A DNA stretch of 64,000 bases from Gammaproteobacteria bacterium (GCA_947480335.1 CANKCB010000008.1:10741-74740), one strand, 5' to 3'. Positions 36,732 to 64,000 are shown, counted from the stretch's first letter. Translations and numbers: made by a program. Notes: generated by a model from the sequence alone, not told the origin.

Positions 36732-36761
36732 TTATTAACATTACAAGCCAGAGATTACACC

Positions 36762-39350: not shown

Positions 39351-39414
39351 AAAAACCTTCACTCCTCACGCTGAGGCGGTACAAACCCCCTCACTCCTCA
39401 CCCCTAACAAGAGA

Positions 39415-41802: not shown

Positions 41803-41814
41803 GGGGGAACGCTC

Positions 41815-44139: not shown

Positions 44140-44172
44140 CCCGATGCTGCCTGAAGCCTGAATGGTAATCTA

Positions 44173-44928: not shown

Positions 44929-45353
44929 TTCAGTGCTCCGGATTTACTGATTAAGAGATGCTCTGCCATCAGGCTAGCAATGTTGTCACAAAACTGCAGC
45001 AGTATAGCTGCATCCGGGGTTCCACCAAACCGGCAGTTGATTCAGGTTGTGCTTTCAGCTACTGAAAATAGCGAGAACCTGATTGGGTTAGTAACATGTC
45101 CACTTACCAAAATTCGGGAAAGGAGATTTACCCATAACAGATGTTTTATTCTGGTTAGGGAGACTATTGAACCAGGATGGATACAGGATAGTTTTGAAAC
45201 TTGCAGGTGATTGATACAGTTACTTGATTCAATTCTACTAACTTTCAGTGTCGATAATTATTCTCAATATGAACGGATTAGGAAGGAGCGTGGTCAGTTC
45301 TGTGAGTGTGCAAATAGTAGACAACTTTATTCAGATTTTTCACCATCATTTCG

Positions 45354-45382
45354 CTGACAGAACAGGGTGTTCCGGCTATAAT
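45354..45382 (+). promoter_or_regulatory. candidate sigma-70 promoter of the nuo operon (CTGACA -17 bp- TATAAT)
   Basis: -35 CTGACA at 45354..45359, 17-bp spacer, perfect -10 TATAAT at 45377..45382, about 100 nt upstream of nuoA. Confidence 0.4.
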
Positions 45383-45484
45383 GCCGCCCATTATAAATGA
45401 CAGCGTGTTTTACCCGGTTTTCAAATCTGCTTAAAACGGACTGTTTCTGTACTTCAACTTGGGTGTACGAGTTTAAATACGAGA

Positions 45485-45841
45485 ATGTTGGCTAATTATT
45501 TACCGATTCTGATTTTCCTCATTATTACCATGGTAATGGGTTCGGCGTTTTTCCTGATTGGTTATGTGCTCGGCCCGAAGAAGTTCGATTCCGAGAAAAT
45601 GTCCTCGTATGAATGTGGTTTTGCGGCATTCGAAGATGCCCGCATGAAATTTGACGTCCGTTATTACCTGGTAGCTATCCTGTTTATCATTTTTGACCTG
45701 GAAATCGCCTTTTTCCTGCCCTGGGCTGTGGCCTTGCGCGAAATCAATATTGCTGGATTCTGGGCCATGATGATCTTTCTGGGTGTACTGGTCGTTGGCT
45801 TTATTTACGAATGGCGTAAAGGGGCACTGGAATGGGAGTAG
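45485..45841 (+). CDS. nuoA: NADH-quinone oxidoreductase subunit A
   Basis: 118 aa, 3 TM, first gene of the nuo operon. Confidence 0.9.
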
Positions 45842-46317
45842 AAGAAAAAATTCACGAGTCAGGTATCGTGACCACTACGGTGGACAATCTGGTGAACTGG
45901 GCAAGAACCGGCTCCATGTGGCCGATGACGTTTGGTCTGGCGTGCTGCGCAGTCGAAATGATGCATGCCGGAGCCTCCCGTTATGATCTTGACCGTTTTG
46001 GTATCGTATTTCGTCCCAGTCCCCGGCAATCGGATGTGATGATTGTGGCCGGGACGCTGGTCAACAAGATGGCACCGGCCTTGCGCAAGGTGTATGACCA
46101 GATGCCAGAACCTCGCTGGGTTATCTCAATGGGGTCGTGTGCAAACGGTGGTGGTTATTATCATTATTCCTATGCGGTAGTACGTGGTTGTGATCGTGTC
46201 GTGCCGGTTGATATTTATGTACCGGGTTGTCCACCAACAGCAGAGGCCCTGCTGTTTGGTATCATCCAGCTGCAGAAGAAAATCAGACGCGGCAAAGTCA
46301 ATATTATTTCTGCCTAG
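45832..46317 (+). CDS. nuoB: NADH-quinone oxidoreductase subunit B
   Basis: 161 aa. [18 protein letters not shown] Fe-S (N2) ligands. Confidence 0.9.
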
Positions 46318-46334
46318 GAAGATACGTACCCATC

Positions 46335-47030
46335 ATGTCGGAAACGCTGGAACAACTTCAAAATCGTTTGACCGCTTGTTTTGGCGATAAAATCAGCGCA
46401 TCTATTATGCATTGCGGGGAACTCACGCTTGAAGTTGAAGCCGCCAATGCGATTGACGTATTCAGCAAGTTACGCAAGCTGGAAGAATTCCATTTTGAAC
46501 AGCTGATTGATCTTTGCGGTATTGATTATCAGCGATTTGGCAAGGCAGACTGGGAAACCGAAGATACCACCAGCACCGGTTTTAGTCGGGGCGTCAGCAA
46601 GGACATCTATAATGAGAACCTGAATAAGCCAGCACGGTTTGCTGTGGTATATCACCTGTTGTCACTGCTACACAATCGCCGCTTGCGAGTACGAGTATTT
46701 TTGCATAACAATCCGCCGCGTATTGAATCGGTTACCAGTATCTGGGCTTCTGCCAACTGGTTTGAGCGAGAGGCTTTTGATTTGTTCGGTATCCTGTTTG
46801 AAGGACATCCGGATCTCAGACGTATCCTGACAGACTATGGTTTTATCGGACATCCCTTCCGCAAGGACTTCCCGTTGGAAGGCAATGTGGAAGTAATTTA
46901 TGACCCGGAAAAGAAGCGTGTGGTTTATCAACCAGTCACGATCCGAAATCGTGTGTTGGTGCCGAAAGTGATACGCCATGACGACAGATTTACCAGCAAC
47001 CCGCCGCCCGCGGGAGCAAGTACCAAATAA
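46335..47030 (+). CDS. nuoC: NADH-quinone oxidoreductase subunit C (separate, not fused to D)
   Basis: Start at [12 protein letters not shown]. The track ORF starts upstream, inside nuoB. 231 aa. Confidence 0.85.
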
Positions 47031-47050
47031 TATTAGCGAGCCCGGAATTC

Positions 47051-48304
47051 ATGCCTGAAATCAGAAATATGACAATGAACTTTGGTCCACAGCATCCTGC
47101 GGCCCACGGTGTATTGCGTCTGGTACTGGAGATGGACGGTGAAATCATTGAGCGTGCCGATCCGCATGTAGGCTTGTTGCACCGGGGTACCGAAAAACTG
47201 GCCGAATACAAACCCTATAACCAGAGTATCGGCTATATGGATCGGCTCGATTATGTATCAATGATGTGCAATGAGCATGCGTATGTGTTGGCCATCGAGA
47301 AATTGCTTGGTGTGACACCTCCTATACGTGCGCAGTATATCCGTGTGATGTTCGATGAAATTACGCGTGTACTGAACCATTTGATGTGGTTGGGTGCGCA
47401 TGGCTTGGATATCGGTGCAATGACCATGTTCCTGTATTGTTTCCGAGAACGTGAAGACCTGATGGACTGCTATGAAGCGGTGTCGGGTACCCGTATGCAT
47501 GCTACCTATTATCGTCCAGGTGGTGTGTATCGTGATTTGCCTGGAACAATGCCGCAATACCAGACCTCAGTCTGGAAAAATGCAAAACAGGTTTCGGAGT
47601 TGAACCAGAACAGACAGGGGTCCCTGCTGGACTATATAGAATCGTTCACCAGTCGTTTTCCGGCGTGTGTAGATGAATATGAAACGCTGTTAACCGATAA
47701 CCGAATCTGGAAACAGCGTACCGTGGGCATAGGCGTGGTTACCCCGGAACGAGCATTACAACTGGGTTTCACTGGCCCGATGCTACGTGGTTCCGGTATC
47801 GAGTGGGACCTGCGCAAGAAGCAACCGTATGAAGTGTATAGTCAGATCGATTTTGACATTCCGGTAGGCGTGAATGGTGATTGTTATGATCGCTATCTGG
47901 TTCGAATCGAGGAGATGCGTCAATCCAATCGCATTATCAAACAGTGTGTGGACTGGCTGCGTAAAAATCCAGGGCCGGTGATACTCGATAATCACAAGCT
48001 GGTACCGCCACGTCGTGAAGAAATGAAAGACGATATGGAATCGTTAATTCATCATTTCAAACTGTTTACTGAGGGTTACTGTGTTCCGGAAGGTGAAGCA
48101 TACGCCGCCGTTGAGCATCCGAAAGGCGAATTTGGTATTTATCTGGTATCGGATGGTGCCAATAAACCTTATCGCCTGAAGATTCGTGCTCCCGGGTTTG
48201 TGCATTTGTCCTCAATGAATGAAATGGTCAAGGGACACATGCTGGCTGACGTGGTTGCCGTCATTGGTACGCAGGACATCGTATTCGGGGAAGTGGATAG
48301 ATAA
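47051..48304 (+). CDS. nuoD: NADH-quinone oxidoreductase subunit D
   Basis: 417 aa. [16 protein letters not shown] conserved N-terminus. Confidence 0.9.
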
Positions 48305-48305
48305 T

Positions 48306-48803
48306 ATGACTGATCAAGTAAAGCCTGTATTGTCCGAACATGCCCGCAAGGAGATTGATCACTGGCTGGCCAAATATCCGGAAGATCGTAAACAATCAGC
48401 TGTGCTTGCCGCCTTACGGGAAGTGCAGCATGAGAATAACGGATTTCTGACTACGGAATTGATGGACGCGGTAGCCGATTATCTGGGTATGCCGCAGATT
48501 GCTGTATATGAGGTGGCAAGTTTTTATTCGATGCTGGAGACCAAACCGATTGGTCGTCACAGTATTTCTATTTGTACCAACATCTCCTGCATGTTGTCCG
48601 GTTCGGATGCGGTTGTTGACTATACCGAGAAGAAACTGGGAATCAAAACCGGCCAGTCGACAGCGGACGGACGGTTTTTCCTGAAAAAGGAAGAAGAATG
48701 TCTGGCGGCCTGTTGTGGCGGGCCGATGATGATGGTGGATCATGTGTACTATGAAAATCTTACCAACGAAAAGATAGATGCAATCCTGGAAAAACTGGAC
48801 TGA
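48306..48803 (+). CDS. nuoE: NADH-quinone oxidoreductase subunit E
   Basis: Start at MTDQVKP (48306). 165 aa. CxxxxC...CxxxC [2Fe-2S] motifs. Confidence 0.85.
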
Positions 48804-50110
48804 TGGCCGAGATAAAACAAAATTTGGTTTGTTATGCCACACTTGGTGTGGAGCAGCCGTGGACGCTGGAAAATTATCATCGTGTAGGTGGTTATGACGC
48901 GTTGAAAAAAATTATCCGTGAAGGGATTACTCCGGAACAGGTGATTGAAGAGATGAAAGCCTCCGGTCTGCGTGGCAGGGGTGGAGCGGGTTTCCCGGCC
49001 GGATTGAAATGGAGTTTTATGCCGGCCAAGTTTGAAGGCCCGAAATATGTGGTTTGTAATTCGGATGAAAGCGAACCGGGTACCTGCAAGGACCGGGACA
49101 TACTGAGATTTAATCCGCACTCACTGGTCGAAGGCATGACCATTGCCTGTTATGCCATGCGTACCAAGGTTGGCTATAACTATATGCGTGGCGAGTTTAT
49201 GGATGAGCCGTTCGCCCGGTTTGAAAATGCACTGAAAGAAGCGTATACGAATAATTATCTGGGCAAGAATATTCTGGGTTCGGATGTCAGTATCGATATC
49301 CATGCCACGCTTGGAGCAGGTGCGTATATCTGTGGCGAAGAAACAGCGTTGCTGAATTCACTCGAAGGCAAGAAAGGTCTGCCGCGCTTCAAGCCACCGT
49401 TCCCTGCCAACTTCGGCTTATATGGCAAACCGACAACTATCAACAATACCGAAACCTTCGCCTCTGCTCCGTCGATTATACGTAATGGCGCCAAATGGTT
49501 TGCGGATCTGGGTGTGGCCAATAGTGGTGGAACCAAATGTTTTTCCGTCAGTGGCCATGTAAACAAGCCTGGGAATTTTGAAATTCCGATGGGTACATCG
49601 TTCCGGGATTTGCTTGAATTGGCCGGTGGTGTTCGTCATGGCAGAAAATTGAAAGCAGTGATTCCGGGCGGATCTTCTGTACCGGTATTGCCTGGCGAAA
49701 AAATGATGCAGGCCAATATGGATTATGATTCGATCAAGCAGGTTGGTTCGATGCTTGGGTCCGGTGCGGTCGTCATTATGGATGACACTACCTGTATGGT
49801 GAAAATGCTTTGCCGTATTTCGCAGTTTTATCATGCTGAATCCTGCGGCCAGTGTACGCCTTGTCGCGAAGGAACTGGTTGGCTGTATCGTATGCTGCGT
49901 CGGATTATGGATGGCAAGGGTGAACTGGAAGATATGGACAAACTGGTCGATGTGGCAAACAAGATCGAAGGCCGTACGATATGTGCGCTGGGTGATGCCG
50001 CTGCCTGGCCGGTTCAGAGTTTTATGAAACATTACCGGCATGAATTTGAATACATGATCAGAAACAAGGGTCGCAGCATAGTCGACAGCCCGGATTATAA
50101 AGCGGCTTAA
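48803..50110 (+). CDS. nuoF: NADH-quinone oxidoreductase subunit F
   Basis: 435 aa. [21 protein letters not shown] motif. [12 protein letters not shown] [4Fe-4S]. Confidence 0.9.
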
Positions 50111-50142
50111 CGAACAGCCGCAAAGATAATGAAATTATTTAA

Positions 50143-52515
50143 ATGACTGACGATACAATAACAATCGAAGTAGACGGCAAACCTCTGCAGGCCCGAAAGG
50201 GTCAAATGCTGATCGAGGTGACGGATGCGAACGACATTTATATTCCGCGTTTTTGTTACCACAAGAAACTGACTATCGCGGCCAATTGCAGAATGTGTCT
50301 GGTTCAGGTTGAGAAAGCGCCCAAGCCATTGCCAGCCTGTGCTACACCGGTGATGGATGGAATGAAAGTCCAGACCCGTTCGGCCTATGCGCGTGACGCA
50401 CAGAAAGCTGTAATGGAATTTTTGCTGATTAACCATCCTCTGGATTGCCCGATTTGCGATCAGGGCGGTGAATGTGAATTGCAGGATCTCGCGATGGGTT
50501 ACGGATCGGATGTTTCGCGTTATCAGGAAAAGAAACGTGTTGTTAAGGACAAGAATATCGGTCCATTGGTACAGACCGAAATGACACGCTGTATCCATTG
50601 CACGCGTTGTGTACGCTTTGGTGAGGAAATAGCCGGTTTGCGTGAATTGGGTGCAACCGGTCGCAGTGAATTTATGGAAATCGGTACCTATGTCGAAAAA
50701 AGTATGGTGTCCGAATTATCCGGCAACGTGATAGATGTTTGTCCGGTCGGAGCGTTGACATCAAAACCTTTCCGTTTTTCAGCACGTACCTGGGAAATGA
50801 CCCAGTATCCAGGCATTGCCCCACATGATGGTACCGGTTCAAATATCCACTTTCATGTGAAACATGATGTAGTAAAACGTGTGGTTCCGGCTGAAAATGA
50901 AGCTATCAATGAAGTCTGGCTATCTGACAGGGATCGATTCAGTTATGAAGGACTCTACAGCCAGGATCGCCTGACTGTTCCAATGGTCAAGGAAAATGGC
51001 GTATGGCGTGAAACGAGCTGGGAGGCGGCACTGGATCAGGTTGCCAGCCGTATGCAGAAACCAGTTGGTGCCACGGCCAGTCAATTAGGTGCACTGATCT
51101 CTCCGACAGCTACCTCCGAAGAAGCCTGGTTGATGCAGAAGTTAGTCAGGGCAGCTGGCAGTAATAATATTGATCACCGCTTGCATCAATCAGACTTTAC
51201 TGATGCAGCGCATGATCCGGCATTCCCCTGGTTAGGCCAGGCGATACCGGAACTGGAACAGCTCGACACAGTCTTGTTAATCGGTGCCTGGCCACGGAAA
51301 GAACAACCGTTATTAAACCTGCGTTTGCGCAAGGCGGCGTTACGGGGTGCCAATATCATGGTGGTCAATACAATTGACTACGATTTCAATTACAAAATCT
51401 CAGACAAGCTGATTTCCGATCCGGTCACTCTGATCCACGACGTTGCCGCAGTATTAAAAGCGGTGTCTGAAATTTCCGGAAACAAAATTGAATCGGGCAA
51501 GTTATTGGAAGCTGTAGTAGTCAATGACAAGCATCGCGCGATTGCGAGCAAGCTGGCTGCGGGTAAAAAATCAGCCATACTCGCGGGCAATCAGTTTATG
51601 GCACACACACAGTATTCTACATTGAGATATTTGGCTGGTCATATAGCCAGCCTGTCGGCTTCCAGTTTTGGATATCTGGGAGAATCGGCCAATGAGGCAG
51701 GCTGCTGGTTGGCTGGCGCAATACCCCATCGAGGTACCGGTGCTAAAAAGATCGATCAGCCAGGTTTGAATGCACGCAGTATGATGGAGCAGAAGTTATC
51801 CACTTATTTGTTGTTCAACATTGAACCGGAACTGGATTGTGCCAATGCGGCATTGGCCATGGCGAGTCTGCAAAATGCGGAAACGGTAATCGCTTTTACA
51901 CCCTATAAGTCAGCTTCTCTGTTGCAGGTAGCTAACATTATGTTACCAATTGCGATCTATGCAGAAAATGAAGGTTCTATGATTAATGTGGCTGGTCAGT
52001 CGCAAGTCTACTCAGCCTGTGTACCGGCTCAGGGTGAGGCACGACCCGGCTGGAAAATCTTGCGTGTGCTGGCCAATCGTTTGGGCGTAGCTGCATCGGA
52101 GTACCAGTCAGTCGAAGCAGTACGTAATGAACTCAATACAGTAATCTCTTCGGTAACACCGGATAACCGAGCAGACTGGGTCAGGCCGGAAGCTTTGCCC
52201 TCAGTACCGGGTGGAATATTGAGGACGACTGAAATCCCGATGAATTCAGTCGATACACTGGTCAGACGCGCTGAGGCCTTGCAACAGACAGCAGATGTCG
52301 CCGATGGTGCAGTACATATCAATAGCAATCTGGCTGGTAAACTCAGATTGAACGGTAGCAGCAAGCTTGTGGCGCAACAGCAGGGGAGTGCGCTGGAGCT
52401 GAATTATGTGCTCGACAACAGATTACCGGATAATACCGTACTGATTCAGGCTGCCCATCCCGCAACGTCGGCATTGGGTGCCTGGTTTGGTGAAATCACC
52501 CTGAGGAAACTGTAA
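50143..52515 (+). CDS. nuoG: NADH-quinone oxidoreductase subunit G
   Basis: 790 aa. N-terminal 2Fe-2S / 4Fe-4S Cys clusters (CYHKKL..., [13 protein letters not shown]). Confidence 0.9.
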
Positions 52516-52520
52516 AGCCA

Positions 52521-53633
52521 ATGTTAAACACATTGTTAAACACAGTTTTCGAATGGATACAGACCAATATCCTGATGCAAATCATCGGGGTTGTGGTGCC
52601 TGTGGCATTCCAGAATGAGGCCCTGCTGATTGCGAGTACAATAGTGAAGATAATTGCCATTATTGCGCCGTTGATGATCATCGTGGCGTATACCACCTAT
52701 GCCGAGCGCAAGATCATTGGTTACATTCAATGTCGTATCGGTCCTAACCGGGTTGGGTTCTTTGGTTTTCCCCTGGTTGGATTGGGGCAGCCTATTGCCG
52801 ATGCGGTCAAACTGATGTTCAAGGAAATTATCATTCCGACCGGCGCCAACAAACCCTTGTTTATTATTGCCCCGATATTATCGTTTGCTCCGGCGCTGGC
52901 CGCCTGGGCTGTCATACCGTTTGATGATGTGATGGTGCTTGCTGACATCAATGCGGCACTGATTTACATACTTGCACTGACCTCGCTGGCTGTTTATGGA
53001 ATCATCATTGCCGGTTGGGCTTCGAACTCAAAATATGCTTTTCTCGGCGCCATCCGCTCTGCAGCGCAGATTATTTCCTACGAAATTGCGATGGGATTTG
53101 CACTGGTGTGCGTACTGGTGGCAGCAGGCAGTCTGAATCTGGGCGACATCGTCGAGGCGCAAAGTGGCAGCGTATTAACGTGGTTCTGGATACCCCTGTT
53201 CCCGGTATTTGTTATTTACTTTATATCCGGTGTGGCAGAAACCAATCGCGCGCCGTTTGACGTGGCTGAAGGTGAATCAGAAATCGTGGCAGGGTTCCAT
53301 GTTGAGTATGGTGGTATGGCTTTCTCAATTTTCTTTATGGCGGAATATGCCAATATGGTACTCATTTCAGCCCTGGCATCGATCATGTTTCTGGGCGGCT
53401 GGCTGTCTCCGTTACAGGGAGTGCCGGTAATCGGTGAACCTTCACTTGGCTGGTTGTTGCTGAAGTCGTCATTTTTCCTGTTTCTGTTTTTATGGCTCCG
53501 TGCAACGTTCCCCCGATATCGCTATGACCAGATCATGCGTCTCGGCTGGAAAGTATTCCTGCCCATTACCATTGTCTGGATAGTCATTGTTTCAGCGATG
53601 GTGGTGATGAGAATACCACCCTGGTTTAACTAG
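52521..53633 (+). CDS. nuoH: NADH-quinone oxidoreductase subunit H
   Basis: 370 aa. [18 protein letters not shown] motif. Confidence 0.85.
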
Positions 53634-53657
53634 ACGATTCGGCAACGAGCTTAGATT

Positions 53658-54146
53658 ATGCAAAAAATCGGACAATATTTTCAGAGTTTGCTGTTATGGG
53701 AATTGCTGAAGGGCTTGCAATTAACAGGCAAGTATCTGTTCAAACGCAAGATTACTGTGCAGTACCCCGAGGAAAAAACACCGATGTCTCCACGCTTCCG
53801 TGGTTTGCATGCACTTCGTCGTTATCCCAATGGAGAGGAACGTTGCATTGCCTGCAAGTTATGCGAAGCTGTTTGTCCGGCTGTGGCCATTACCATTGAT
53901 TCTGAACAACGCTCAGACGGCACACGACGCACGACACGTTATGATATTGATTTGACCAAATGTATATTTTGCGGGTTTTGTGAAGAATCCTGTCCGGTTG
54001 ACTCTATCGTCGAAACCCATGTGTTTGAATACCATGGTGAGAAGAAGGGTGATTTATTGATGACCAAACAGAGATTGCTGGAAAACGGTGACAAGTATGA
54101 GCAGCAGATTGCGGCTGCACGTGCCAGTGACGCGATGTATCGATAG
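53658..54146 (+). CDS. nuoI: NADH-quinone oxidoreductase subunit I
   Basis: 162 aa. Two CxxCxxCxxxCP ferredoxin motifs. Confidence 0.9.
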
Positions 54147-54181
54147 TACGGAATACCTGATTAATAACGGCTGACTGACGA

Positions 54182-54790
54182 ATGTTTGAACTTTATATAT
54201 TTTATTTTTTTGCAGCGATGATGTTGCTGTCAGCGACGATGGTCATCACTGTGCGTAATCCGGTACATGCGGCCTTGTTTCTGGTACTGGCATTCTTCTC
54301 CAGCGCGACCGTCTGGCTGTTATTACAGGCCGAGTTTCTGGCGATCATTCTGATTCTGGTTTATGTCGGTGCCGTCATGGTTCTGTTCCTGTTTGTGGTG
54401 ATGATGCTGGATATCAATCTTGCCCGAATACGGGAAGGCTTTGCCCGGTTTTTGCCAATCGGGATAGTCGTCGCCGTGTTGATGGCTGTGGCGATGGTCA
54501 TGGCACTGAAAACCGTGTATCTGGATGCGGCACATCTTGATGTCTTTGCAGCGCCTGCGGCAGATTACAGTAACACCCGTGAACTGGGCATGGTTCTGTA
54601 CACAGAATATCTTTATCCATTTGAGATCTCGGGTGCAATCCTGCTGGTCGCCATAATTGCCGCCATCAGCCTGACCCTGCGTAATGGTAAACCCAACAAG
54701 ACCCAGAATCCGGAGGAACAGGTTCGGGTAAAGAGCAAGGACAGGGTGCGTATCGTCAAGGGTATGGATACGGAGCAAAAGACATCATGA
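54182..54790 (+). CDS. nuoJ: NADH-quinone oxidoreductase subunit J
   Basis: 202 aa, 5 TM. Confidence 0.85.
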
Positions 54791-55092
54791 TTACGCTGGG
54801 ACAGGTACTGGTTCTTGCCGCGATACTGTTTTGTATCAGTGTTGCCGGCATTTTTATCAACCGCAAGAATGTGATCATTCTGCTGATGTGTATCGAGCTG
54901 ATGCTGTTATCCGTCAATATGAATTTCATTGCCTTCTCACACTTTTTGCATGATATCCATGGACAGATATTTGTCTTCTTCATTCTTACTGTAGCCGCTG
55001 CTGAGTCTGCGATTGGTCTGGCGATTCTGGTCGTGCTGTTCCGGAACAGAAGTACGATTAATGTTGCCGACCTCGACAGTTTGAAGGGATAG
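54787..55092 (+). CDS. nuoK: NADH-quinone oxidoreductase subunit K
   Basis: 101 aa, 3 TM, overlaps nuoJ by 4 nt. Confidence 0.9.
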
Positions 55093-55096
55093 ACGG

Positions 55097-57073
55097 ATGC
55101 AGGCACTCGATATGAAATCAATTTATCTGGCCATTGTGCTGGCACCACTGGTCGGTTCAGTCATTGCCGGTTTGTTTGGTCGTGCAATAGGCCGTAATGG
55201 CGCCCATTGGGTGACCATCCTTGGCGTGGGTATTTCCAGCCTGTTATCGCTGTATGCCTACAAGCATATTGTATTTGATGGTGGCGAGCTGTTTAACGAG
55301 GTGATCTATAACTGGTTAACTACAGGCAACCTCAGTCTGAGTGTTGGTTTCATGGTAGATCGTCTGACAGTGACGATGATGGTGGTTGTGACATTCGTAT
55401 CGTGGATGATACACATCTACACCATTGGATATATGCATGAGGACCCTGGCTATCAGCGGTTCTTCAGTTATATATCGTTATTTACATTTGCCATGCTGAT
55501 GCTGGTCATGTCGAACAACTTTATGCAGTTGTTTTTTGGTTGGGAAGCGGTTGGTCTGGTCTCTTATCTGTTAATTGGTTTCTGGTTCAAGAAGGAAACT
55601 GCCATCTTTGCCAATATGAAAGCTTTTCTGGTAAACCGTGTGGGCGACTTCGGATTCCTGCTCGGTATAGCCGCTGTGTTGATGACATTCAAGACGCTCG
55701 ATTACGCGCAGGTATTCTCCCAGGTTTCAACGTTCGCCAATGCCACTGTGCAAATTTTGCCTGGCACGGACTGGTCATTAATGTCGGTAATCTGTATTTG
55801 TCTGTTTATCGGTGCGATGGGTAAATCGGCACAGGTACCCTTGCATGTGTGGTTGCCGGATTCAATGGAAGGTCCGACACCTATCTCTGCGTTGATCCAT
55901 GCCGCTACGATGGTCACTGCCGGTATTTTTATGGTGGCAAGAATGTCACCCTTGTTTGAGTTGTCTGAGACAGCATTGTCATTTGTGTTGGTCATCGGCT
56001 CAATCACCGCCTTCTTCATGGGTCTGTTGGGACTGGTGCAGAATGACATCAAACGAGTCATTGCTTATTCAACCTTGTCTCAGCTGGGCTATATGACAGT
56101 GGCGCTAGGTGTGTCTGCCTATTCAGCGGCGATTTTTCATCTGGTGACACATGCCTTTTTCAAGGCATTGTTGTTCCTGGCGGCGGGCTCAGTCATCATT
56201 GCGATGCATCATGAGCAGGACATGCGCAAGATGGGTGGTTTGTATCGACACTTACCCGTGACCTGGATTACTTCGCTGATTGGTTCGCTGGCGTTGATTG
56301 GATTCCCGGGTACTTCCGGATTTTTCTCCAAGGATGCCATTATTGAAGCTGTGCATGAATCACATCTACCCTTTGCTGACTGGGCCTATGTGGCGGTACT
56401 TAGTGGCGTATTTATTACCGCACTGTATTCGTTCCGTCTGTTTTTTATGGTATTCCATGGCAAAAAGCGAATGGATCATCATACCGAAGAGCATTTGCAT
56501 GAATCACCTGCGGTGGTGACGGTGCCCTTGTCCGTGCTGGCAATACCTTCATTACTGATTGGTTCGTTTCTGGTAGGCCCAATGTTATTTGGCGATTATT
56601 TCCTTGAGGCGATCTATGTAGCACCTCCACATAATGTACTCGAAGTGATGGGTGAGGAGTATCACGGTATTGTTGAATTCACCTTGCACGCCTTCTCGGC
56701 AGCCCCGGTCTATCTGGCATTGGCGGGTGTGTTTGTCGCCTGGTTACTCTATATCAAATATCCGGATGTGCCTGAAAAGATTGCATCGCGGTTTGGTCTG
56801 ATACACCGGATACTGTTAAACAAATATGGGCTGGATGATTTCAACCAGATTGTGTTTGCCGGTGGCGCCAGATTACTGGGTAGATTTTTGTGGCAGAACG
56901 GTGATGTCAGATTGATAGATGGTTTACTGGTAAATGGTACCGCTTCAGCTGTGCGCTGGTTCTCGTCGAGGATCAGGGTGATCCAGTCTGGTCTGTTACA
57001 TGATTATGCGTTCACTATGATCATTGGGCTGCTGGTACTGCTTGCAGTTTTCGTTCTACGGTTCTTGCAGTAA
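55097..57073 (+). CDS. nuoL: NADH-quinone oxidoreductase subunit L
   Basis: 658 aa antiporter-like subunit. Confidence 0.9.
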   Translation: MQALDMKSIYLAIVLAPLVGSVIAGLFGRAIGRNGAHWVTILGVGISSLLSLYAYKHIVFDGGELFNEVIYNWLTTGNLSLSVGFMVDRLTVTMMVVVTFVSWMIHIYTIGYMHEDPGYQRFFSYISLFTFAMLMLVMSNNFMQLFFGWEAVGLVSYLLIGFWFKKETAIFANMKAFLVNRVGDFGFLLGIAAVLMTFKTLDYAQVFSQVSTFANATVQILPGTDWSLMSVICICLFIGAMGKSAQVPLHVWLPDSMEGPTPISALIHAATMVTAGIFMVARMSPLFELSETALSFVLVIGSITAFFMGLLGLVQNDIKRVIAYSTLSQLGYMTVALGVSAYSAAIFHLVTHAFFKALLFLAAGSVIIAMHHEQDMRKMGGLYRHLPVTWITSLIGSLALIGFPGTSGFFSKDAIIEAVHESHLPFADWAYVAVLSGVFITALYSFRLFFMVFHGKKRMDHHTEEHLHESPAVVTVPLSVLAIPSLLIGSFLVGPMLFGDYFLEAIYVAPPHNVLEVMGEEYHGIVEFTLHAFSAAPVYLALAGVFVAWLLYIKYPDVPEKIASRFGLIHRILLNKYGLDDFNQIVFAGGARLLGRFLWQNGDVRLIDGLLVNGTASAVRWFSSRIRVIQSGLLHDYAFTMIIGLLVLLAVFVLRFLQ

Positions 57074-57085
57074 ATCAGGGGGAGT

Positions 57086-58603
57086 ATGGATCTTAATCTG
57101 CCATTTTTAAGCCTGCTAATCTGGACCCCTATACTGGGAGGTATCTGGGTGCTGTATCTTGGCGATGGTCAAGAGCAGACCGTCAAGGTGTTTTCGCTCA
57201 TGGTCTCGATTCTGGTGTTTGTCTTGTCATTGCTGGCCTATGCTGATTTTGATACCACTACCTCTGCCATGCAGTTTGTTGAATTACGTTCCTGGATCGA
57301 CGCGTTCAAGATTAATTATCATCTCGGAATTGATGGCATCGCACTGCCCTTGATACTACTGACTACCTTTACCACAATACTGGTGATCCTGTCGGCATGG
57401 GATGTGATTGAATATCGTATTTCCCAGTTCATGGCCGCATTTCTGATTCTGGAAGGTTTGATGAACGGAGTATTTGCATCGGTAGATGCAATCCTGTTTT
57501 ATTTTTTCTGGGAAGCCATGCTGATACCGATGTTCCTTATTATCGGTATCTGGGGTGGACCACGCCGGGTGTATGCCACAATCAAGTTCTTTCTGTACAC
57601 CTTTCTGGGTTCCGTGTTCATGCTGGTCGCACTGTTATATATGTATTCTAAAGCGGGCAGTTTCAGTATTCCGGACTTACAGGCCATGCCTTTATCCCTG
57701 GCCGAACAAAAACTGATTTTTATTGCATTCTTCCTCGCCTTTGCCGTCAAGATCCCGATGTGGCCGGTACATACCTGGTTGCCGGACGCCCATGTGGAAG
57801 CACCTACCGCAGGTTCAGTTGTATTGGCAGCAATCATGCTGAAAATGGGTGGCTATGGTTTTATTCGTTTCAGCCTCCCCATCACACCGGATGCAAGCAT
57901 GGCTTTTGATTCGTGGATGATAGTGTTGTCACTGATTGCCATTGTCTATATAGGTTTTGTGGCTTTGGTACAGTCAGATATGAAGAAGCTGATTGCGTAT
58001 TCCTCTATCTCACATATGGGATTTGTGACGCTCGGTTTTTTCATTGTTTTTTCAATTTATGCCACTACTAATGACAGCAGTGGTGCCGTGATGGCGCTGG
58101 AAGGCTCAATGATGCAGATGATCTCGCATGGATTTATCTCGGGTGCGATGTTCCTCTGTGTGGGTGTTTTATACGATCGTATGCATAGTCGCGAAATCAG
58201 CGCCTATGGTGGCGTTGCCAATACCATGCCGCGATTTGCAGCATTTATGCTGTTATTCACAATGGCCAATGCCGGTTTGCCCGGTACAACCGGATTTGTC
58301 GGTGAATTTCTGGTTATCCTTGGCAGTTACCAGTCCGGATTCTGGATAGCTTTCCTTGCCGCACTAACATTGATTATGGGTGCAGCCTATTCATTATGGA
58401 TGTACAAACGGGTCATCTTTGGTGATGTGGCGAATGAACATGTAGCCGAATTGACAGATATTAATACACGGGAAACGTTTATCCTGGCGGTACTGGCCAT
58501 TACTGTACTGGTTTTTGGAATCTGGCCCGCACCGATATTCGAGATGATGCAGCCATCAATCGAAAATCTATTCAATCACATCATCCAGTCGAAAACAGGT
58601 TAA
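57086..58603 (+). CDS. nuoM: NADH-quinone oxidoreductase subunit M
   Basis: 505 aa antiporter-like subunit. Confidence 0.9.
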   Translation: MDLNLPFLSLLIWTPILGGIWVLYLGDGQEQTVKVFSLMVSILVFVLSLLAYADFDTTTSAMQFVELRSWIDAFKINYHLGIDGIALPLILLTTFTTILVILSAWDVIEYRISQFMAAFLILEGLMNGVFASVDAILFYFFWEAMLIPMFLIIGIWGGPRRVYATIKFFLYTFLGSVFMLVALLYMYSKAGSFSIPDLQAMPLSLAEQKLIFIAFFLAFAVKIPMWPVHTWLPDAHVEAPTAGSVVLAAIMLKMGGYGFIRFSLPITPDASMAFDSWMIVLSLIAIVYIGFVALVQSDMKKLIAYSSISHMGFVTLGFFIVFSIYATTNDSSGAVMALEGSMMQMISHGFISGAMFLCVGVLYDRMHSREISAYGGVANTMPRFAAFMLLFTMANAGLPGTTGFVGEFLVILGSYQSGFWIAFLAALTLIMGAAYSLWMYKRVIFGDVANEHVAELTDINTRETFILAVLAITVLVFGIWPAPIFEMMQPSIENLFNHIIQSKTG

Positions 58604-58615
58604 TACAAAATTGTC

Positions 58616-60052
58616 ATGATCTCGGATATTCTGCTACTGGCTCCTGAAATTGTTTTGCTAACGATGGCCTGTATCATTCTGGTACTGGATACGATCTCGA
58701 CAGACCATGACAAGGCCTTAACCTACTGGTTAACCCAGGCCACACTGGTGTTAACAGTATTTTTGATTGTGTGGTTTTCACCCGCAGCGGAAATCGTGGC
58801 GTTTAATGGCCATTTTGTTACCGACCCAATGAGTGTGGTACTCAAGATTACTATCTGTCTGGTTACACTGGTTGTATTTTTCTATTCGTATGATTACCTG
58901 AAGAAGCACGAGATCATTCGCGGAGAATATTTTGTGCTGGGTTTGTTTGCTGTGCTCGGTATGTTGATTATGTCCTCTGCGGCCAGTTTGCTGACTATCT
59001 ATATGGGTCTGGAACTCTTGTCATTGTCGCTCTATGCAATGGTCGCAATGCATAAGCATCCGGTAACCGCCTCTGAAGCCGCAATGAAATATTTTGTGCT
59101 CGGTGCATTGGCCTCTGGCATGCTGCTATATGGTATATCAATGATCTATGGTGTGACCGGTGCACTGGATTTGAAGAGTATTGCCGATTTTGCCAATCAG
59201 ACTACCGATGCTAATTCCAGTCTGTTACTGGTATTTGGTCTGGTGTTCCTGGTCGTTGGAATTGGTTTTAAACTCGGTGCTGTGCCTTTCCATATGTGGG
59301 TGCCGGATATCTATGAAGGCGCGCCAACCGCAGTAACATTGTTTATCAGTACGGCCCCGAAGATTGCCGCCTTTGCGATGACGTTCAGATTACTGGCGGA
59401 TGGTCTTCAGGCGCTATTGCTGGACTGGCAGGGGATGCTGATGGTGTTGTCTGTGTTGTCGATGGCAACTGGAAACATCATTGCCATATCCCAGACCAAT
59501 ATCAAACGCATGCTGGCCTATTCAACCATCGCACATGTCGGATTTTTTCTGTTGGGCATGATCAGTGGCAGCAATAATGGTTATGCCGGTTCAATGTTTT
59601 ATATCATTATCTATGCAGCCATGAGCATGGGATCTTTCGGCATCATCATTCTGCTCGGTCGCAAAGGTGCAGAAGCGGATACCTTGAATGATTTCAAGGG
59701 ACTTGCCCGTCGTAGTCCCTGGTATGCGTTTATCATGCTGATACTGATGTTTTCCATGGCCGGAGTGCCGCCTTTGGCCGGGTTCTGGTCAAAATGGTTT
59801 GTGATCAAGGAAGTAATTGCATCGGGTCATGTGACGCTGGCAGCGATTGCCGTGGTCTTCTCTGTGATAGGCGCATTCTATTATCTTCGTGTGGTCAAGC
59901 TGATGTATTTTGACGAACCTGAAAACATGATTGCGTTCAAGGCATCCCAGCAGATGCGGTTTGTGCTCAGCCTGAACGGAATTCTGGTGCTGCTAATTGG
60001 CTTTATGCCCGGTATGTTAATCAGCTTATGTCTAAAAGCTATCGGCGGGTAA
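58616..60052 (+). CDS. nuoN: NADH-quinone oxidoreductase subunit N
   Basis: 478 aa antiporter-like subunit, last gene of the operon. Confidence 0.9.
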   Translation: MISDILLLAPEIVLLTMACIILVLDTISTDHDKALTYWLTQATLVLTVFLIVWFSPAAEIVAFNGHFVTDPMSVVLKITICLVTLVVFFYSYDYLKKHEIIRGEYFVLGLFAVLGMLIMSSAASLLTIYMGLELLSLSLYAMVAMHKHPVTASEAAMKYFVLGALASGMLLYGISMIYGVTGALDLKSIADFANQTTDANSSLLLVFGLVFLVVGIGFKLGAVPFHMWVPDIYEGAPTAVTLFISTAPKIAAFAMTFRLLADGLQALLLDWQGMLMVLSVLSMATGNIIAISQTNIKRMLAYSTIAHVGFFLLGMISGSNNGYAGSMFYIIIYAAMSMGSFGIIILLGRKGAEADTLNDFKGLARRSPWYAFIMLILMFSMAGVPPLAGFWSKWFVIKEVIASGHVTLAAIAVVFSVIGAFYYLRVVKLMYFDEPENMIAFKASQQMRFVLSLNGILVLLIGFMPGMLISLCLKAIGG

Positions 60053-60081
60053 TTTGATCCTTACAAGCGGCGGATAACAGA

Positions 60082-61407
60082 TTACTTCAGCGTAGCGATT
60101 TGTTTGCCAAGTTGTACAGACTGACCTGCATGCGTATCCTTATTCCACCGCAGGTGGTTTTCCTCAAACAGCATAATGACGGTTGACCCCATATTGAATC
60201 GGCCCATTTCCACGCCCTTGTCGATGCGAATCGGCTTGTCAGATTGAGTATAGTGCTGGACTGATTTTTCATGGGCATCTGCAGGGGTAATCTGACCCGC
60301 CCAAACCGTTTCCATACTTCCTACAAAGATGGCTCCTACCATCACCAGTGCAACATTACCTATATCCGTATTGAACAGGGTTACCAGCCTTTCATTGCGG
60401 GCAAACAGATTATCAATTGTACGTGTCGTTGCCGGATTAACTGAAAACAAATTGCCGGGTATATATGTCATGCTTTGCAGCGTTCCAGTAACTGGCATGT
60501 GTATACGATGATAGTCTTTAGGTGACAGATAAATCGTTATGAATTCACCGTTATTAAATTGGCCGGCCAGTGCAGAATCTCCACCGAGTAGTTGTTCAAC
60601 GGTGTAATCGTGATTTTTAGCCTGGATCAGTCGACCATTACTGATACGACCAAACTGACTGATCGCACCATCAACCGGTGAAATGAGGGAATAGATACCA
60701 GGGTCAACCGGACGTGCAGTATCTTGTAAGGAACGGGTGAAAAATTCATTAAATGTCCGGTAATCCTGTGGTTTGTGTTTAACAGCAATGGACATGTCCA
60801 CGTGATAGGTGCGGATAAATGTGTTAATCATCAGGTTTTTCAGGGGAGACCAACGTATGCGGGTAATCTTGTACATCATGGCGGACAACCAATGTTGTGG
60901 TAACAAATACTGGTACATCACGGCATAGTCAGTCCAGGATCCGGTTGTTGCGTCATCTGATTCTTTATGCGTGGAGTTATTGTCTGACATTTTTCTTACT
61001 TCAGCCTCAACTGTAATACTGGTTCCATCTGCAAATTGCAGGGTTAATGGGATGGTTTCACCGGCTACAGGTGAGTTGCCATTATTGTATAACATCAAGT
61101 GTAAATCGCCAGATGCGAATTGCACGCTTGTTCCGGCCGCCAGTTCAATTTTATCCAGCCTTTCCATGCGGCTTGTTCCCTGGACGTTCAGGCTTTTGTG
61201 TATTTCTATCCGGGGGAACCGCGTACTGCTAATGGCGACCAGGGTAATATTTGTCAAGCCTGTGTTATCAAGCTGTAGATAACCGGCATTGACCGGTGTA
61301 GCAGGGGGTGCTTCAGCAATCCATGTATTGTTGCTGATGACAGAACTATCCGCGTAGGCAGTGATGAAAGCCAGAAGTAATCCGCAGAAGCCAAAAAAAC
61401 GTAACAC
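60082..61407 (-). CDS. psd: continuous ORF: signal peptide + PCu(A)C copper-chaperone domain (aa 1-139) read in-frame into a complete phosphatidylserine decarboxylase proenzyme (aa 140-441; internal ATG at 60990)
   Basis: GTG start. PCu(A)C-like motifs: AGYLQLDNTG, GDLHLMLY, PLTLQFADGTSITVEAEV. Psd motifs: YQYLLPQHWLS, YRTFNEFF, LSPKDYHRIHMP, autocleavage site FNMGSTV. No stop codon between the domains. Confidence 0.75.
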   Translation of the reverse strand: MLRFFGFCGLLLAFITAYADSSVISNNTWIAEAPPATPVNAGYLQLDNTGLTNITLVAISSTRFPRIEIHKSLNVQGTSRMERLDKIELAAGTSVQFASGDLHLMLYNNGNSPVAGETIPLTLQFADGTSITVEAEVRKMSDNNSTHKESDDATTGSWTDYAVMYQYLLPQHWLSAMMYKITRIRWSPLKNLMINTFIRTYHVDMSIAVKHKPQDYRTFNEFFTRSLQDTARPVDPGIYSLISPVDGAISQFGRISNGRLIQAKNHDYTVEQLLGGDSALAGQFNNGEFITIYLSPKDYHRIHMPVTGTLQSMTYIPGNLFSVNPATTRTIDNLFARNERLVTLFNTDIGNVALVMVGAIFVGSMETVWAGQITPADAHEKSVQHYTQSDKPIRIDKGVEMGRFNMGSTVIMLFEENHLRWNKDTHAGQSVQLGKQIATLK

Positions 61408-61408
61408 G

Positions 61409-62080
61409 TCAGTCCTGACGTGAGATAAAGCCAGAGATATTTGTAATTGCTGAGATCAGTATGTCGGTTGAGTGTGGTGCGGAAAAGATACCCACTAGCC
61501 TGGCTTTTGGATCCAGCAGAAACACAGAACTGGTATGTTGTACCGTGTAGCTTCCATCTGTAGCGACAGATCCGATGATATGGGCGATGCCGATTTGAGA
61601 AGTCAGTTGGTTAATTTGTTCATCTGAGCCACCCAAGGCTGTTATTTTGCCGTTGAAGTAGCTGATATATTTTGCCAGGTGGGATGTCGTGTCCCGTTGT
61701 GGATCAACTGTAACAAACAGAGACTGAAGCGAGGGTTGGCCTGGTTGTAGCTGCAATCGTGTCTGGACCTGTTCCATCACTGACAGGGTCACAGGACACA
61801 CATCCGGGCAGTAGCTATATCCGAAAAACAGCAAGGACCAGTGGCCTTGTAGCTCGTTTTTGCCGAATGGTTTGCCGTTATGATCAATCAGGCTGAAATC
61901 CGTCAATTGTTTAGGATCAGGCCACAGTAGTCCCGGTATTGTCTCCGGTGCAGAAGAAGTCTGAAAATAACGGGTTGAATACAGCCCAAGTCCGGCACCG
62001 ATAATTATCAGTGCCAGAATCATGGAAGTAGTTATCAGGGTCTGCCGGCTCACCATATTTTGATTATACCTGAATAGCAA
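61409..62080 (-). CDS. SCO1/SenC family copper chaperone (thioredoxin-like)
   Basis: 223 aa. N-terminal TM anchor. CPDVCP motif. Stop TGA 1 nt before the GTG start of the PCu(A)C ORF. Confidence 0.8.
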   Translation of the reverse strand: MLFRYNQNMVSRQTLITTSMILALIIIGAGLGLYSTRYFQTSSAPETIPGLLWPDPKQLTDFSLIDHNGKPFGKNELQGHWSLLFFGYSYCPDVCPVTLSVMEQVQTRLQLQPGQPSLQSLFVTVDPQRDTTSHLAKYISYFNGKITALGGSDEQINQLTSQIGIAHIIGSVATDGSYTVQHTSSVFLLDPKARLVGIFSAPHSTDILISAITNISGFISRQD

Positions 62081-62314
62081 TCATCTGCATTGAAGAATCA
62101 CACTGAATTATATGGAAAAAAGTGCCTTACGTTCAGTATCAATTTTAAAGATATAAAAAAAATGTAAATTATTTGAATAATGAGTAAAGAAAATAATTTG
62201 ACTGCCGATAAAACAAATGTAGGGCGTGATCCGGGTACGGGAGATTGCCGGATTACGAAATGATCTACGCCGGATGATTATTTATCGACCACAAAAAACA
62301 GAAGAACAGAAAAA

Positions 62315-62665
62315 ATGTCCATGAATAATATTACTATAGTAATTGCAAATTCCGATTTCTCTGAAGGAGAAAAACTGAAGGTCGTTATCGGTCGGGAGTT
62401 TAATGTGATCCTGATTACCCAGCCAGTACCGGTAAAATATCTGGTAGAACGTTGTCAGGCCGTAATCGTAGGCAGTAATATTTCAGGAAGTGATGGGCTC
62501 GATTTTATCAAGGCCGTCGTCTCCAATACCTACATACCGGTTCTGATAATCACCCCGCTGGAAAGACAGATTGAAGCAACTCAGGCAGGTCCGGTTCAGC
62601 ATGCAGATAAATTGACCAGAGCAAGCTGCAAAGCAACAGTATCAGTCTGTTATAGCATCCGGTAA
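62315..62665 (+). CDS. possible degenerate response-regulator receiver (pseudo-receiver) domain protein
   Basis: 116 aa. Receiver-like beta-alpha pattern (ITIVIANSD..., AVIVGSNISGSDGLDFIKAV, IPVLIITP). The phospho-acceptor Asp position appears replaced by Ser/Gly. Weak support. Confidence 0.35.
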   Translation: MSMNNITIVIANSDFSEGEKLKVVIGREFNVILITQPVPVKYLVERCQAVIVGSNISGSDGLDFIKAVVSNTYIPVLIITPLERQIEATQAGPVQHADKLTRASCKATVSVCYSIR

Positions 62666-62827
62666 TGAAAGCATCTGGCTGCACTTGGGCACCTGTCCAT
62701 AAGGTCTGATTGAGTTATTGTTTATCGGCAATTACTCGGAAACCTGTAGTCAGGCACAAAACTGGCGGTCTTTATCAGGATTGGTATACTTGAGCAGATT
62801 TTTAACAATATCTCCTGGGAGTTAGTA

Positions 62828-64000
62828 ATGGAATCTTCTGCCGCTGCCGAACTGGCATTACATGAGTTGCATACCACAGCACTGGTACTGGGCATCGGTG
62901 TGTTCGTTGCAGTACTCGCACGCTTTGTAAAAACGCCTGATGTGGCCTTGTTATTGATAGTCGGTATGCTGGTAGGACCGGCAGGTCTGAACTGGGTCAA
63001 TGTTCCAATCGAATCGGAAATGAACCAGTTAATCCTGATTTTTGGGTCAGCCTATATTTTATATGATGGCGGCGCTTCCTTGCGCTTGTCAGTATTGCAA
63101 CAAACATGGATAACTATTACGGTAATCTCCACCCTTGGCATTCTGATTACCTGTGGCATTACCGCGGTGGCAGCACATTATTTGATGGGCCTGGCCTGGC
63201 CGATCGCCCTGTTACTGGGAGCGGTCATTGCTTCTACCGATCCGGCCACACTGGTTCCGGTATTTCGTCAGGTGGCCATTCGGGAACGGGTTGCCCAGAC
63301 AGTGATGAGCGAATCAGCGTTTAATGATGCCATGGGAGCAATTGTTACCTTTACCTTGCTGGCAATGGTTATGGGCGGCACAGGTGAATTTTCCGCGACA
63401 AGCGCAGTAATTGACCTGCTATGGCAAGCCGGTGTTGGCGTATTGAGTGGGGCAGTCGTCGGTTATGTGGTCATGTATCTGGTTGGACATCCACGCCGTG
63501 CCTGGGCTGCCGATCATGCATCCGTGTTGACACTGGTATCGGTCATCGTTGCTTATATCGGAGCAACATATTTTCATGCCAGTGGATTTATGGCGGTATT
63601 CGTACTGGGTATTTTTATGGGTAATCAGGATGTGCTCGGTTTTAGTATGTCTCAAAAGGACTTGCATAAAACCGAGGAATATACGCTGACAACGGCTTTC
63701 GTGATGCGAGTGTTTATCTTTATTCTGCTGGGTACACATGTGGACTTCAAACTGATACTGGAGCAGGGCATGTCTACATTATGGGTTGTCCTGGCATTTA
63801 TGTTCGTTGCCAGACCTGTTACGGTTTTCATCTGTGCCGGGGTGGACAGACGGGCCAGATGGTCACTGCAGGAACTTATCTTTATGAGCTGGACCCGTGA
63901 AACAGGCGTTATCCCCGGAGCACTTGCCGGTATGTTGATGGGAATGAATGCGCCTGGTGCCGATGTGATTGCCTCGGTGACGCTGGTAGCCATACTGGTG
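62828..64000 (+). CDS. NhaP-type Na+/H+ antiporter (CPA1 family), 3'-truncated by the window end
   Basis: Open frame from ATG 62828 (GGGAG SD 8 nt upstream) to the window edge, 391 codons. CPA1 hallmark ...AVIASTDPATLVPVF... Multiple TM. Absent from the ORF track because no stop codon falls in the window. Confidence 0.8.
   Translation, partial: MESSAAAELALHELHTTALVLGIGVFVAVLARFVKTPDVALLLIVGMLVGPAGLNWVNVPIESEMNQLILIFGSAYILYDGGASLRLSVLQQTWITITVISTLGILITCGITAVAAHYLMGLAWPIALLLGAVIASTDPATLVPVFRQVAIRERVAQTVMSESAFNDAMGAIVTFTLLAMVMGGTGEFSATSAVIDLLWQAGVGVLSGAVVGYVVMYLVGHPRRAWAADHASVLTLVSVIVAYIGATYFHASGFMAVFVLGIFMGNQDVLGFSMSQKDLHKTEEYTLTTAFVMRVFIFILLGTHVDFKLILEQGMSTLWVVLAFMFVARPVTVFICAGVDRRARWSLQELIFMSWTRETGVIPGALAGMLMGMNAPGADVIASVTLVAILV

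Follow-up and report, generated by a model that had tools for sequence, protein, structure and literature searches.

A conserved in-frame fusion of the copper chaperone gene pcuAC with the phosphatidylserine decarboxylase gene psd in an uncultured gammaproteobacterial clade

The window analyzed here is a stretch of 64,000 nucleotides (nt) from a Gammaproteobacteria bacterium (GCA_947480335.1, CANKCB010000008.1:10741-74740), on the minus strand of which a single open reading frame (ORF), 60082..61407, joins pcuAC to psd, the gene for phosphatidylserine decarboxylase (Psd). We are nearly certain that the pcuAC::psd fusion is real and conserved and that the active sites of both halves are intact. 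On sequence evidence, it is a genuine in-frame fusion of the CuA-assembly chaperone PCuAC with Psd, maintained by selection and conserved in an uncultured gammaproteobacterial clade. We put at about an even chance the further proposal that this one ORF gives rise to two products, an exported long form and a short cytoplasmic Psd.

The ORF listing and its translation revealed no in-frame stop codon before the TAA of psd. An initial annotation of this sequence had described two domains in one frame next to a Sco1 gene (CPDVCP), and this description proved right by Pfam, NCBIfam and the ORF listing. The details it gave for the junction were also all present: codon 140 is an ATG (60990..60988) in the context GAG GCT GAA GTA AGA AAA ATG, an out-of-frame TAA occurs in 'G TAA GA', and the motifs GDLHLMLY, PLTLQFADGTSITVEAEV and FNMGSTV are found in the ORF. 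No second copy of pcuAC or psd exists within the 64-kb window. In the 441-residue product, a predicted Sec signal peptide precedes the PCuAC domain, which is complete; ~20 disordered residues then link it to a full Psd proenzyme. The features of the ORF are as follows:

60082..61407, minus strand: pcuAC::psd fusion ORF; 441 codons, GTG start, TAA stop at 60084..60082
61351..61407, minus strand: predicted Sec-type signal peptide, codons 1-19, MLRFFGFCGLLLAFITAYA, followed by DS after the cleavage site
60991..61341, minus strand: PCuAC core domain, codons 23-139, from PF04314, AlphaFold2 and PDB matches
60988..60990, minus strand: candidate internal psd start, the ATG of codon 140, from Met conservation and the start sites of split relatives
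60922..60990, minus strand: disordered acidic/polar linker, codons 140-162; the predicted local distance difference test (pLDDT) score from AlphaFold2 is ~33 over residues 142-162
60805..60936, minus strand: three N-terminal amphipathic Psd helices, codons 158-201; AlphaFold2 helices 158-168, 171-181 and 187-201
60085..60804, minus strand: Psd catalytic body, codons 202-441, with D246, D298, H300 and H303, and autocleavage at G407-S408-T409 (60189..60181)

The N-terminal half was identified as PCuAC in the initial annotation, and the Pfam profile bore this out; residues 27-133 match PF04314 (profile positions 3-109 of 109, E=1.5e-26) with 92.8 bits against a cut-off of 29.4. Residues 20-139 also align to the PCuAC chains 9yah, 3zja and 2k6w of the PDB. 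By sequence match, the Cu(I) ligands are H70 (61200..61198), M81, H103 and M105 (61095..61093), and their spacing, H70-x10-M81-x21-H103-x-M105, is invariant in 20 fused sequences and fits the published PCuAC copper site, HXnMX21HXM (PMC6669012).

The C-terminal half matches PF02666 (PS_Dcarbxylase) over residues 219-438 (E=3.5e-65, 219.8 bits against a cut-off of 22) and the NCBIfam equivalog TIGR00163 over residues 210-439 (249 bits against a cut-off of 111.75), and residues 147-407 align to the solved beta chain of Escherichia coli PSD (6l06, E=1.7e-71). D246, D298, H300, H303, G407, S408 and T409 are invariant across 34 aligned sequences; the equivalents in the E. coli enzyme are D90, D142, H144, H147, G253 and S254 (structure alignment; PMC7952604). 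The invariance of the PCuAC ligands together with that of the Psd catalytic residues indicates that both halves are under selection, and, judged by these residues, both look functional.

An AlphaFold2 model, built from the 34-sequence alignment, consists of a beta-sandwich at residues 23-138 with high pLDDT, three helices, and then the Psd body; its predicted template-modelling score (pTM) of 0.64 reflects two well-folded domains on a flexible, disordered tether. The three helices align to those of E. coli PSD in 6l06 and 7cnw, and, in this model, codons 158-201 are a monotopic membrane-binding module, not a transmembrane segment.

The same 441-residue protein was read on at least 24 contigs, indexed in 38 blocks, from independent Logan, ENA and NCBI assemblies. 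Three of these assemblies (L082-L084) are unlike the window by 16-39 nt across a 6.9-kb flank while carrying an identical ORF, and a strain variant with four substitutions (P0121) still encodes 441 residues; the base-calling error that had been considered initially is thereby refuted. The proposed search of protein databases for the same architecture returned 26 further clusters (90% identity) containing both PF04314 and PF02666, which are 46-62% identical and 398-471 residues long, and which, without exception, retain the ligands for Cu and the catalytic residues of Psd. Fused loci were obtained from contigs encoding these proteins and from a metagenome scan with a PCuAC-only alignment; a profile search of genome contigs gave split operons only. 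Eight distinct fused DNA junctions were recovered in this way (the window, L089, L090, L091, L092, L093, L094 and L096/L107), all in frame and stop-free, with linkers that have diverged almost wholly, and Sco1 was directly upstream at every fused locus examined; at L138 (P0107), a run of N covers the junction, which is therefore uninformative. The public records NNE36777.1 and NNE38893.1 are labelled only 'phosphatidylserine decarboxylase', a label under which the copper chaperone goes unseen and the start of psd is probably wrong.

In other Gammaproteobacteria, the order sco1-pcuAC-psd is widespread as separate genes (L001, L002/L086, L003, L010, L018, L021, L028, L085, L100, L114, L115, L129, L136 and L137), often flanked upstream by the mrp operon and downstream by the end of the convergent nuo operon (nuoN/nuoM). 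The tails of split PCuAC proteins are short and frequently His-rich, ending before the stop in ...SEHHHHPEHDEH...HQHSH, ...DAHQHHNHR or ...DHAHHHH, and psd begins 18-250 nt past the pcuAC stop or overlaps it. At L137, for instance, the psd ATG and the last codons of pcuAC overlap in different frames. At L085 (3935-4010), a lone in-frame TGA stands between the PCuAC tail (...KISDNQ) and psd, leaving the locus one mutation short of the fused state; its psd ATG lies six codons past the TGA and is preceded by GAGG. Two split loci exhibit a different kind of tail: at L018 (1405-1520), the PCuAC gene is overlapped out of frame by a Cys/Gly/Lys-repeat peptide, MMKCGSKCGSKCGSKCGSK, which ends at a stop, and at L028 (4308-4395), PCuAC itself ends in frame with such a repeat, ...QMKCGSGKCGSM, before its stop. 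These tails are possibly thiol-based metal-binding elements, unlike the usual His/Met tails.

In a bootstrapped neighbour-joining tree of the Psd domain, the fused proteins were strictly monophyletic in 0/200 replicates; split P0028, P0029, P0030 and P0031 fell inside the smallest clade that contains every fused protein in 82-99.5% of replicates, with deep branches poorly resolved. The clade holds 27 fused clusters against 4 split. Since P0028-P0031 nest inside the fused clade, the fused state is old and predominant, and the two states have interchanged several times, one or two mutations being enough on each occasion. The fusion would have arisen in the conserved sco1-pcuAC-psd operon when the stop of pcuAC and the short spacer before psd disappeared. 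One proposal of the initial annotation, a point mutation that destroyed the pcuAC stop, does not hold as a private or recent lesion, given the 26 other fused clusters; a lost stop is nonetheless probably the evolutionary origin of the fusion, because the split relatives share the gene order and one of them, L085, retains a single in-frame TGA. Stops in close relatives, which had been expected to reveal an artefact, were found in only 4 in-clade relatives against 27 fused clusters and do not reduce the finding to one.

Where the fused protein would reside was considered from its hydrophobicity. All complete fused N-termini in the alignment exhibit an n-region Arg, a hydrophobic core of 12-15 residues and an AXA-type cleavage site; in the window's protein, the signal peptide is the most hydrophobic 19-mer and the sole strongly hydrophobic N-terminal segment. 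A hidden transmembrane helix between the domains, which would keep Psd cytoplasmic, was ruled out, in that the 19-mers sampled at residues 152-206 (starts 152-188) all score at least 13 kcal/mol by a position-independent Hessa-type sum. Residues 352-370, the one other hydrophobic stretch, form a conserved beta-strand in the core of Psd. With a predicted Sec signal peptide and, after it, no transmembrane segment to stop transfer, the long product is predicted to be wholly periplasmic; translation from codon 1, followed by engagement with Sec, should place the entire chain in the periplasm.

The distribution of cysteines is consistent with this location. Psd domains are Cys-free in 27/27 fused proteins versus 36/102 unfused relatives (unfused mean 1.3 Cys; Mann-Whitney p=3e-8, a value that, like all p-values here, is overstated because the fused sequences are phylogenetically related). 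The sole cysteine of the window's fusion protein sits in the signal peptide, and in full-length fused proteins generally cysteines are confined to that region, except for one in the C-terminal tail of P0010. Cysteines do occur in 3/5 unfused members inside the clade (P0028, 2; P0030, 1; P0031, 2) and in 9/9 syntenic outgroups, with 1-4 each; an in-clade Fisher test gave p ~0.002 (rough, calculated by hand and uncorrected for phylogeny). Proteins that fold in an oxidizing compartment beside a copper donor are expected to avoid unpaired thiols, and PCuAC uses His and Met only; the Cys-free Psd fits a periplasmic, copper-handling location. No charge difference of note, as an export adaptation, was seen between fused and unfused Psd.

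A second family of fusions, Sco1::Psd, was found by a search of 1.84 billion representatives, Pfam scans and a second homology search. It was seen in only 4-5 clusters, whose members are P0141/P0274 (516 residues, 79% identical), P0276 (502 residues, 41% identical) and P0175 (496 residues); in each, a Sco1 domain with CxxxC follows an N-terminal membrane anchor and is joined to a complete Psd through a junction that contains Met, and the Psd parts are Cys-free in three independent lineages. The loci L139 (3001-4509) and L140 (1908-3458) are stand-alone genes beside an MTS-type methyltransferase gene, with pcuAC not adjacent. Fusion of Psd to a periplasmic CuA-assembly factor has thus occurred at least twice, with partners of unrelated folds. 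P0280 was rejected as a Sco1-Psd candidate, as it looks like a frameshift artefact. Another unexpected fusion is P0145 (483 residues), in which Psd carries a C-terminal 6-O-methylguanine-DNA methyltransferase DNA-binding domain (PF01035), and which may be an artefact.

Most PcuC-type chaperones carry a flexible C-terminal extension (median 20 residues) that is enriched 2-fold in Met and 4-fold in His, binds Cu2+ and hands copper to CoxB (Canonica et al., PMC6669012). Fused linkers are 20-28 residues long and disordered, with 6.4% His versus 2.9% in the whole proteins; from this length, disorder and His enrichment, the linker is therefore a former PcuC extension joined to a former Psd N-terminal tail. 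That of the window, MSDNNSTHKESDDATTGSWTDYAVM, is acidic, with only 1 His and 2 Met.

At least one Met is present in 26/27 linkers, against 15.4 expected from each protein's own Met frequency; only the linker of P0021 lacks one. The residue falls at alignment column 160 in 12/27, M140 of the window among them, and at column 183/184 in a further 13 (25/27 together). Met at more than one of these sites is confined to P0011, which has it at both positions, and three members of the P0023-27 subclade, whose extra Met is at column 165. In P0004, M160 is lost and a Met has appeared instead at column 189, at which its sisters read V-L or V-F. The start sites of unfused relatives coincide with the same columns, those of P0029 and P0031 near 160 and that of P0028 at 183. 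The separate psd ORF of L137 has the homologous ATG (AGG GAA C ATG) as its earliest start codon, 4 codons past a stop; an in-frame TTG and GTG lie further downstream. Purine-rich codons, GTA/GTG AGR AAN, precede the ATG in 5/6 DNA sequences of the M160 group, although AGR makes up 13-41% of Arg codons (13% locally) and R138 is the only AGA of the window ORF. Because of the repeated switching between fused and split states, psd must always have been expressible alone. The Met pattern suggests that a second, cytoplasmic Psd would be made by internal initiation at the ATG at 60990..60988. The nested arrangement with an internal Psd start, raised in the initial annotation, accordingly gains circumstantial support, in that Met is kept at two alternative start positions.

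We reasoned that the two products would behave as follows. The long form would start at the GTG at 61407, translationally coupled to sco1; its Sec signal peptide would be cleaved, and the PCuAC core, the linker and Psd would all be exported. In the periplasm, Psd would fold and, requiring no cofactor, cleave itself at G407/S408, and the three amphipathic helices would seat it on the periplasmic leaflet of the inner membrane, so tethering PCuAC beside membrane-anchored Sco1 and CoxB. There it may decarboxylate phosphatidylserine (PS) of the periplasmic leaflet. The short form, from the internal ATG, would be a conventional Psd at the cytoplasmic face. E. coli PSD is monotopic, binding one leaflet through three amphipathic helices and acting on that leaflet, and Psd makes its own pyruvoyl group without need of an external cofactor (PMC7952604); by analogy, an exported Psd could bind the periplasmic leaflet. 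We infer from these sequence patterns that the Psd moiety would be exported, that it would work in the periplasm and that the internal start would be used; only tentatively, at less than an even chance, do we propose an active Psd on the periplasmic face, tied to PCuAC (elsewhere to Sco1), that couples synthesis of phosphatidylethanolamine (PE) to cytochrome oxidase biogenesis.

Several observations weigh against this scheme. E. coli PSD acts at the cytoplasmic face (PMC7952604). The absence of cysteines could be inherited from one Cys-free ancestor, given that 35% of unfused Psd are Cys-free. To our knowledge, there is no precedent for a periplasmic bacterial Psd. No convincing, well-spaced Shine-Dalgarno sequence precedes the internal ATGs; the purine-rich stretch is too close, and in the window GAGG lies 14 nt upstream. 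A 4-nt Shine-Dalgarno core is, however, found ahead of the first start codon in only 15/38 long ORFs of the window (~40%), and split relatives often have none before psd either. The linker Met could also serve copper binding, not initiation, given the Met/His enrichment of PcuC extensions; if the Met frequency is doubled to allow for this, ~19-20/27 linkers would be expected to contain Met (a rough estimate), and the excess shrinks. The fused sequences are, moreover, related to one another, amounting to ~6-7 independent subclades.

Of the alternatives to two products, the one that fares best, although we think it unlikely, is that the long form alone is made: without internal initiation, all Psd would be at the periplasmic face, with PS arriving by transbilayer flipping, and the protein would be a counterpart of mitochondrial Psd1. 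The ORF is free of stops and has no good Shine-Dalgarno before the internal ATGs, and the mature fused proteins are Cys-free. Psd, with its self-made pyruvoyl, is independent of any cytoplasmic cofactor (PMC7952604), and Psd1 has just such a topology (PMC13425903). The linker Met is explicable as part of a Met/His-rich Cu-binding extension, and the linker of P0021 is Met-free. What this leaves unaccounted for is the way in which Met is placed; a protein rarely has Met at both positions, loss of one is compensated by a Met elsewhere, and both positions coincide with the start sites of unfused relatives. The easy splitting within the clade likewise implies a pre-existing psd start, as at L085, where an ATG with GAGG lies near the TGA.

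Less probable still is tolerated read-through, in which only the short Psd functions and the Psd tail of the long form is useless, being clipped or degraded or simply harmless. Interconversion of fused and split states suggests a small difference in fitness, the disordered linker would be open to proteases, and the Met start positions are conserved, all as this alternative would have it. A Cys-free Psd in 27/27 fused proteins plus three Sco1::Psd lineages nevertheless needs selection on exported Psd, and split in-clade members do carry Cys. A stop is only one mutation away (AAA to TAA, or AGA to TGA, before the ATG), yet the ratio of fused to split is 27:4, and the export and degradation of a 300-residue domain for each chaperone would be costly.

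Two further explanations are highly improbable, and equally so. An artefact or lesion, whether a sequencing or assembly error, a private stop mutation or a pseudogene, might be suspected from the stop between the two genes in L085, L086, L136 and L137, but is refuted by the identical ORF in independent assemblies from different samples, by the 26 further stop-free fused clusters with diverged linkers and by the invariant catalytic residues of both halves. Recoding, that is, a frameshift near codon 137 and termination at the out-of-frame TAA to give a stand-alone PCuAC, draws on a +1-frame TAA or TGA at or near the PCuAC end in 7/8 fused junctions and on GGG G, which could slip, ahead of the +1 stop in L089 and L090; a programmed frameshift was rejected because the eight junctions share no slippery sequence (GAA G in the window; CAA G in L092/L093), L094 is without a nearby +1-frame stop, the stop itself is the expected by-product of a conserved Val-Arg encoded as GTA/GTG AGR, and the Cys-free Psd would go unexplained.

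Turning to the surroundings of the fusion, two features border its start:

61409..62056, minus strand: Sco1/SenC copper chaperone gene (PF02630), 215 residues as called on identical contigs
61405..61422, minus strand: hairpin CACGTCA-GGAC-TGACGTG, with a 7-bp, GC-rich stem followed by a T-run; fold energy -11.9 kcal/mol

Sco1 matches PF02630 (E=6e-40, 136.7 bits), and its copper site reads YCPDVCP (CX3CP); a hydrophobic stretch in the translation, LITTSMILALIIIGAGLGLY, is its N-terminal membrane anchor. The ATG at 62056 is a more likely start than the TTG at 62080, with which the mechanical ORF (61409..62080) begins. The sco1 TGA (61411..61409) is 1 nt ahead of the GTG of the fusion, and the hairpin spans this stop and sequesters the GTG. 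It is present in the window only, being absent at the equivalent junction in relatives; it may act in translational coupling or attenuation, although its significance is uncertain. At the other end, the stops of psd and nuoN are convergent and 29 nt apart (60052..60082), and no terminator-like hairpin separates them; the nuo operon occupies ~45.8-60.05 kb of the window. Divergent from sco1 is an ORF of 116 residues (62315..62665, plus strand), which has no Pfam match on record and is found in the same place on identical contigs; the sole sigma-70-like promoter match of the region (62452..62481, plus strand) falls inside it. No tRNA genes and no Rfam families at the gathering threshold were detected across the window (1..64000).

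Full-text literature searches found no paper in which phosphatidylserine decarboxylase is mentioned alongside PCuAC, a copper chaperone or Sco1. The pcuAC::psd fusion represents a previously undescribed domain architecture of known proteins, and the topology it implies would be new for a bacterial Psd. psd is essential, and bacterial Psd is, by the textbook account, an enzyme of the cytoplasmic face. In these genomes, psd and pcuAC should be curated as one fused ORF with a candidate internal start. If the proposed topology is true, this would be the first bacterial Psd oriented like mitochondrial Psd1, which implies flipping of PS and then formation of PE in the outer leaflet; export would alter where PE can be made in the Gram-negative envelope. 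We know of no functional reason that links CuA-assembly chaperones with PE synthesis; the sco1-pcuAC-psd gene order and two independent chaperone::Psd fusions point to an unrecognized link between the two processes. The fusion would also be a natural case of a soluble periplasmic chaperone gaining a membrane tether.

When compared with Bradyrhizobium diazoefficiens PcuC and Thermus thermophilus PCuAC (PDB 2K6Z), the fusion has in common a Sec signal peptide (predicted in the fusion), the cupredoxin-like core and HXnMX21HXM, as well as the adjacency to Sco1 and a flexible extension of ~20 residues that is often His-rich (PMC6669012). In contrast to theirs, this extension has no free C-terminus but runs on without a stop into a 300-residue enzyme, and in the window it is poor in His and Met. 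PcuC is described as soluble in the periplasm, whereas the fusion would be membrane-tethered via Psd. With E. coli PSD (6L06, 7CNW), it shares the beta chain, the three amphipathic helices, the D-H-S triad and G-S-T self-cleavage; the E. coli enzyme is translated from a start codon of its own, lacks a signal peptide and works on the leaflet facing the cytoplasm, whereas the window ORF extends upstream into a secreted domain and its Psd part is Cys-free. The split operons (OZ245331.1, which is L086, and L085, L136 and L137) have the same gene order and neighbours, and their Psd is 55-61% identical, but they end pcuAC with a stop, psd begins 18-83 nt further on or overlaps in another frame, and their Psd usually contain cysteines.

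Bacterial genes with in-frame internal starts (Meydan et al., bioRxiv 10.1101/520783) likewise have two start codons in one ORF, and here too the short product would be without the N-terminal targeting signal and reside in another compartment; in the fusion, the 'extension' is a whole secreted protein of another pathway, and the internal start is proposed from conservation. Sco1::Psd resembles PCuAC::Psd in placing a periplasmic CuA-assembly chaperone ahead of a complete, Cys-free Psd with a Met at the junction; its partner has the thioredoxin-like Sco1 fold with an uncleaved anchor, and it lies in another neighbourhood with no adjacent pcuAC. In yeast Psd1 and PISD, the catalytic domain faces the intermembrane space, and respiratory complexes are supported by the PE produced there (PMC13425903, PMC6441012). 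An equal topology is predicted for the long form, on the side where CuA assembly occurs. Psd1, which arrives by mitochondrial import, is anchored through a transmembrane segment in its beta-subunit, whereas the bacterial fusion has no transmembrane segment and would be exported by a Sec signal peptide borrowed from PCuAC; the likeness implies no common origin.

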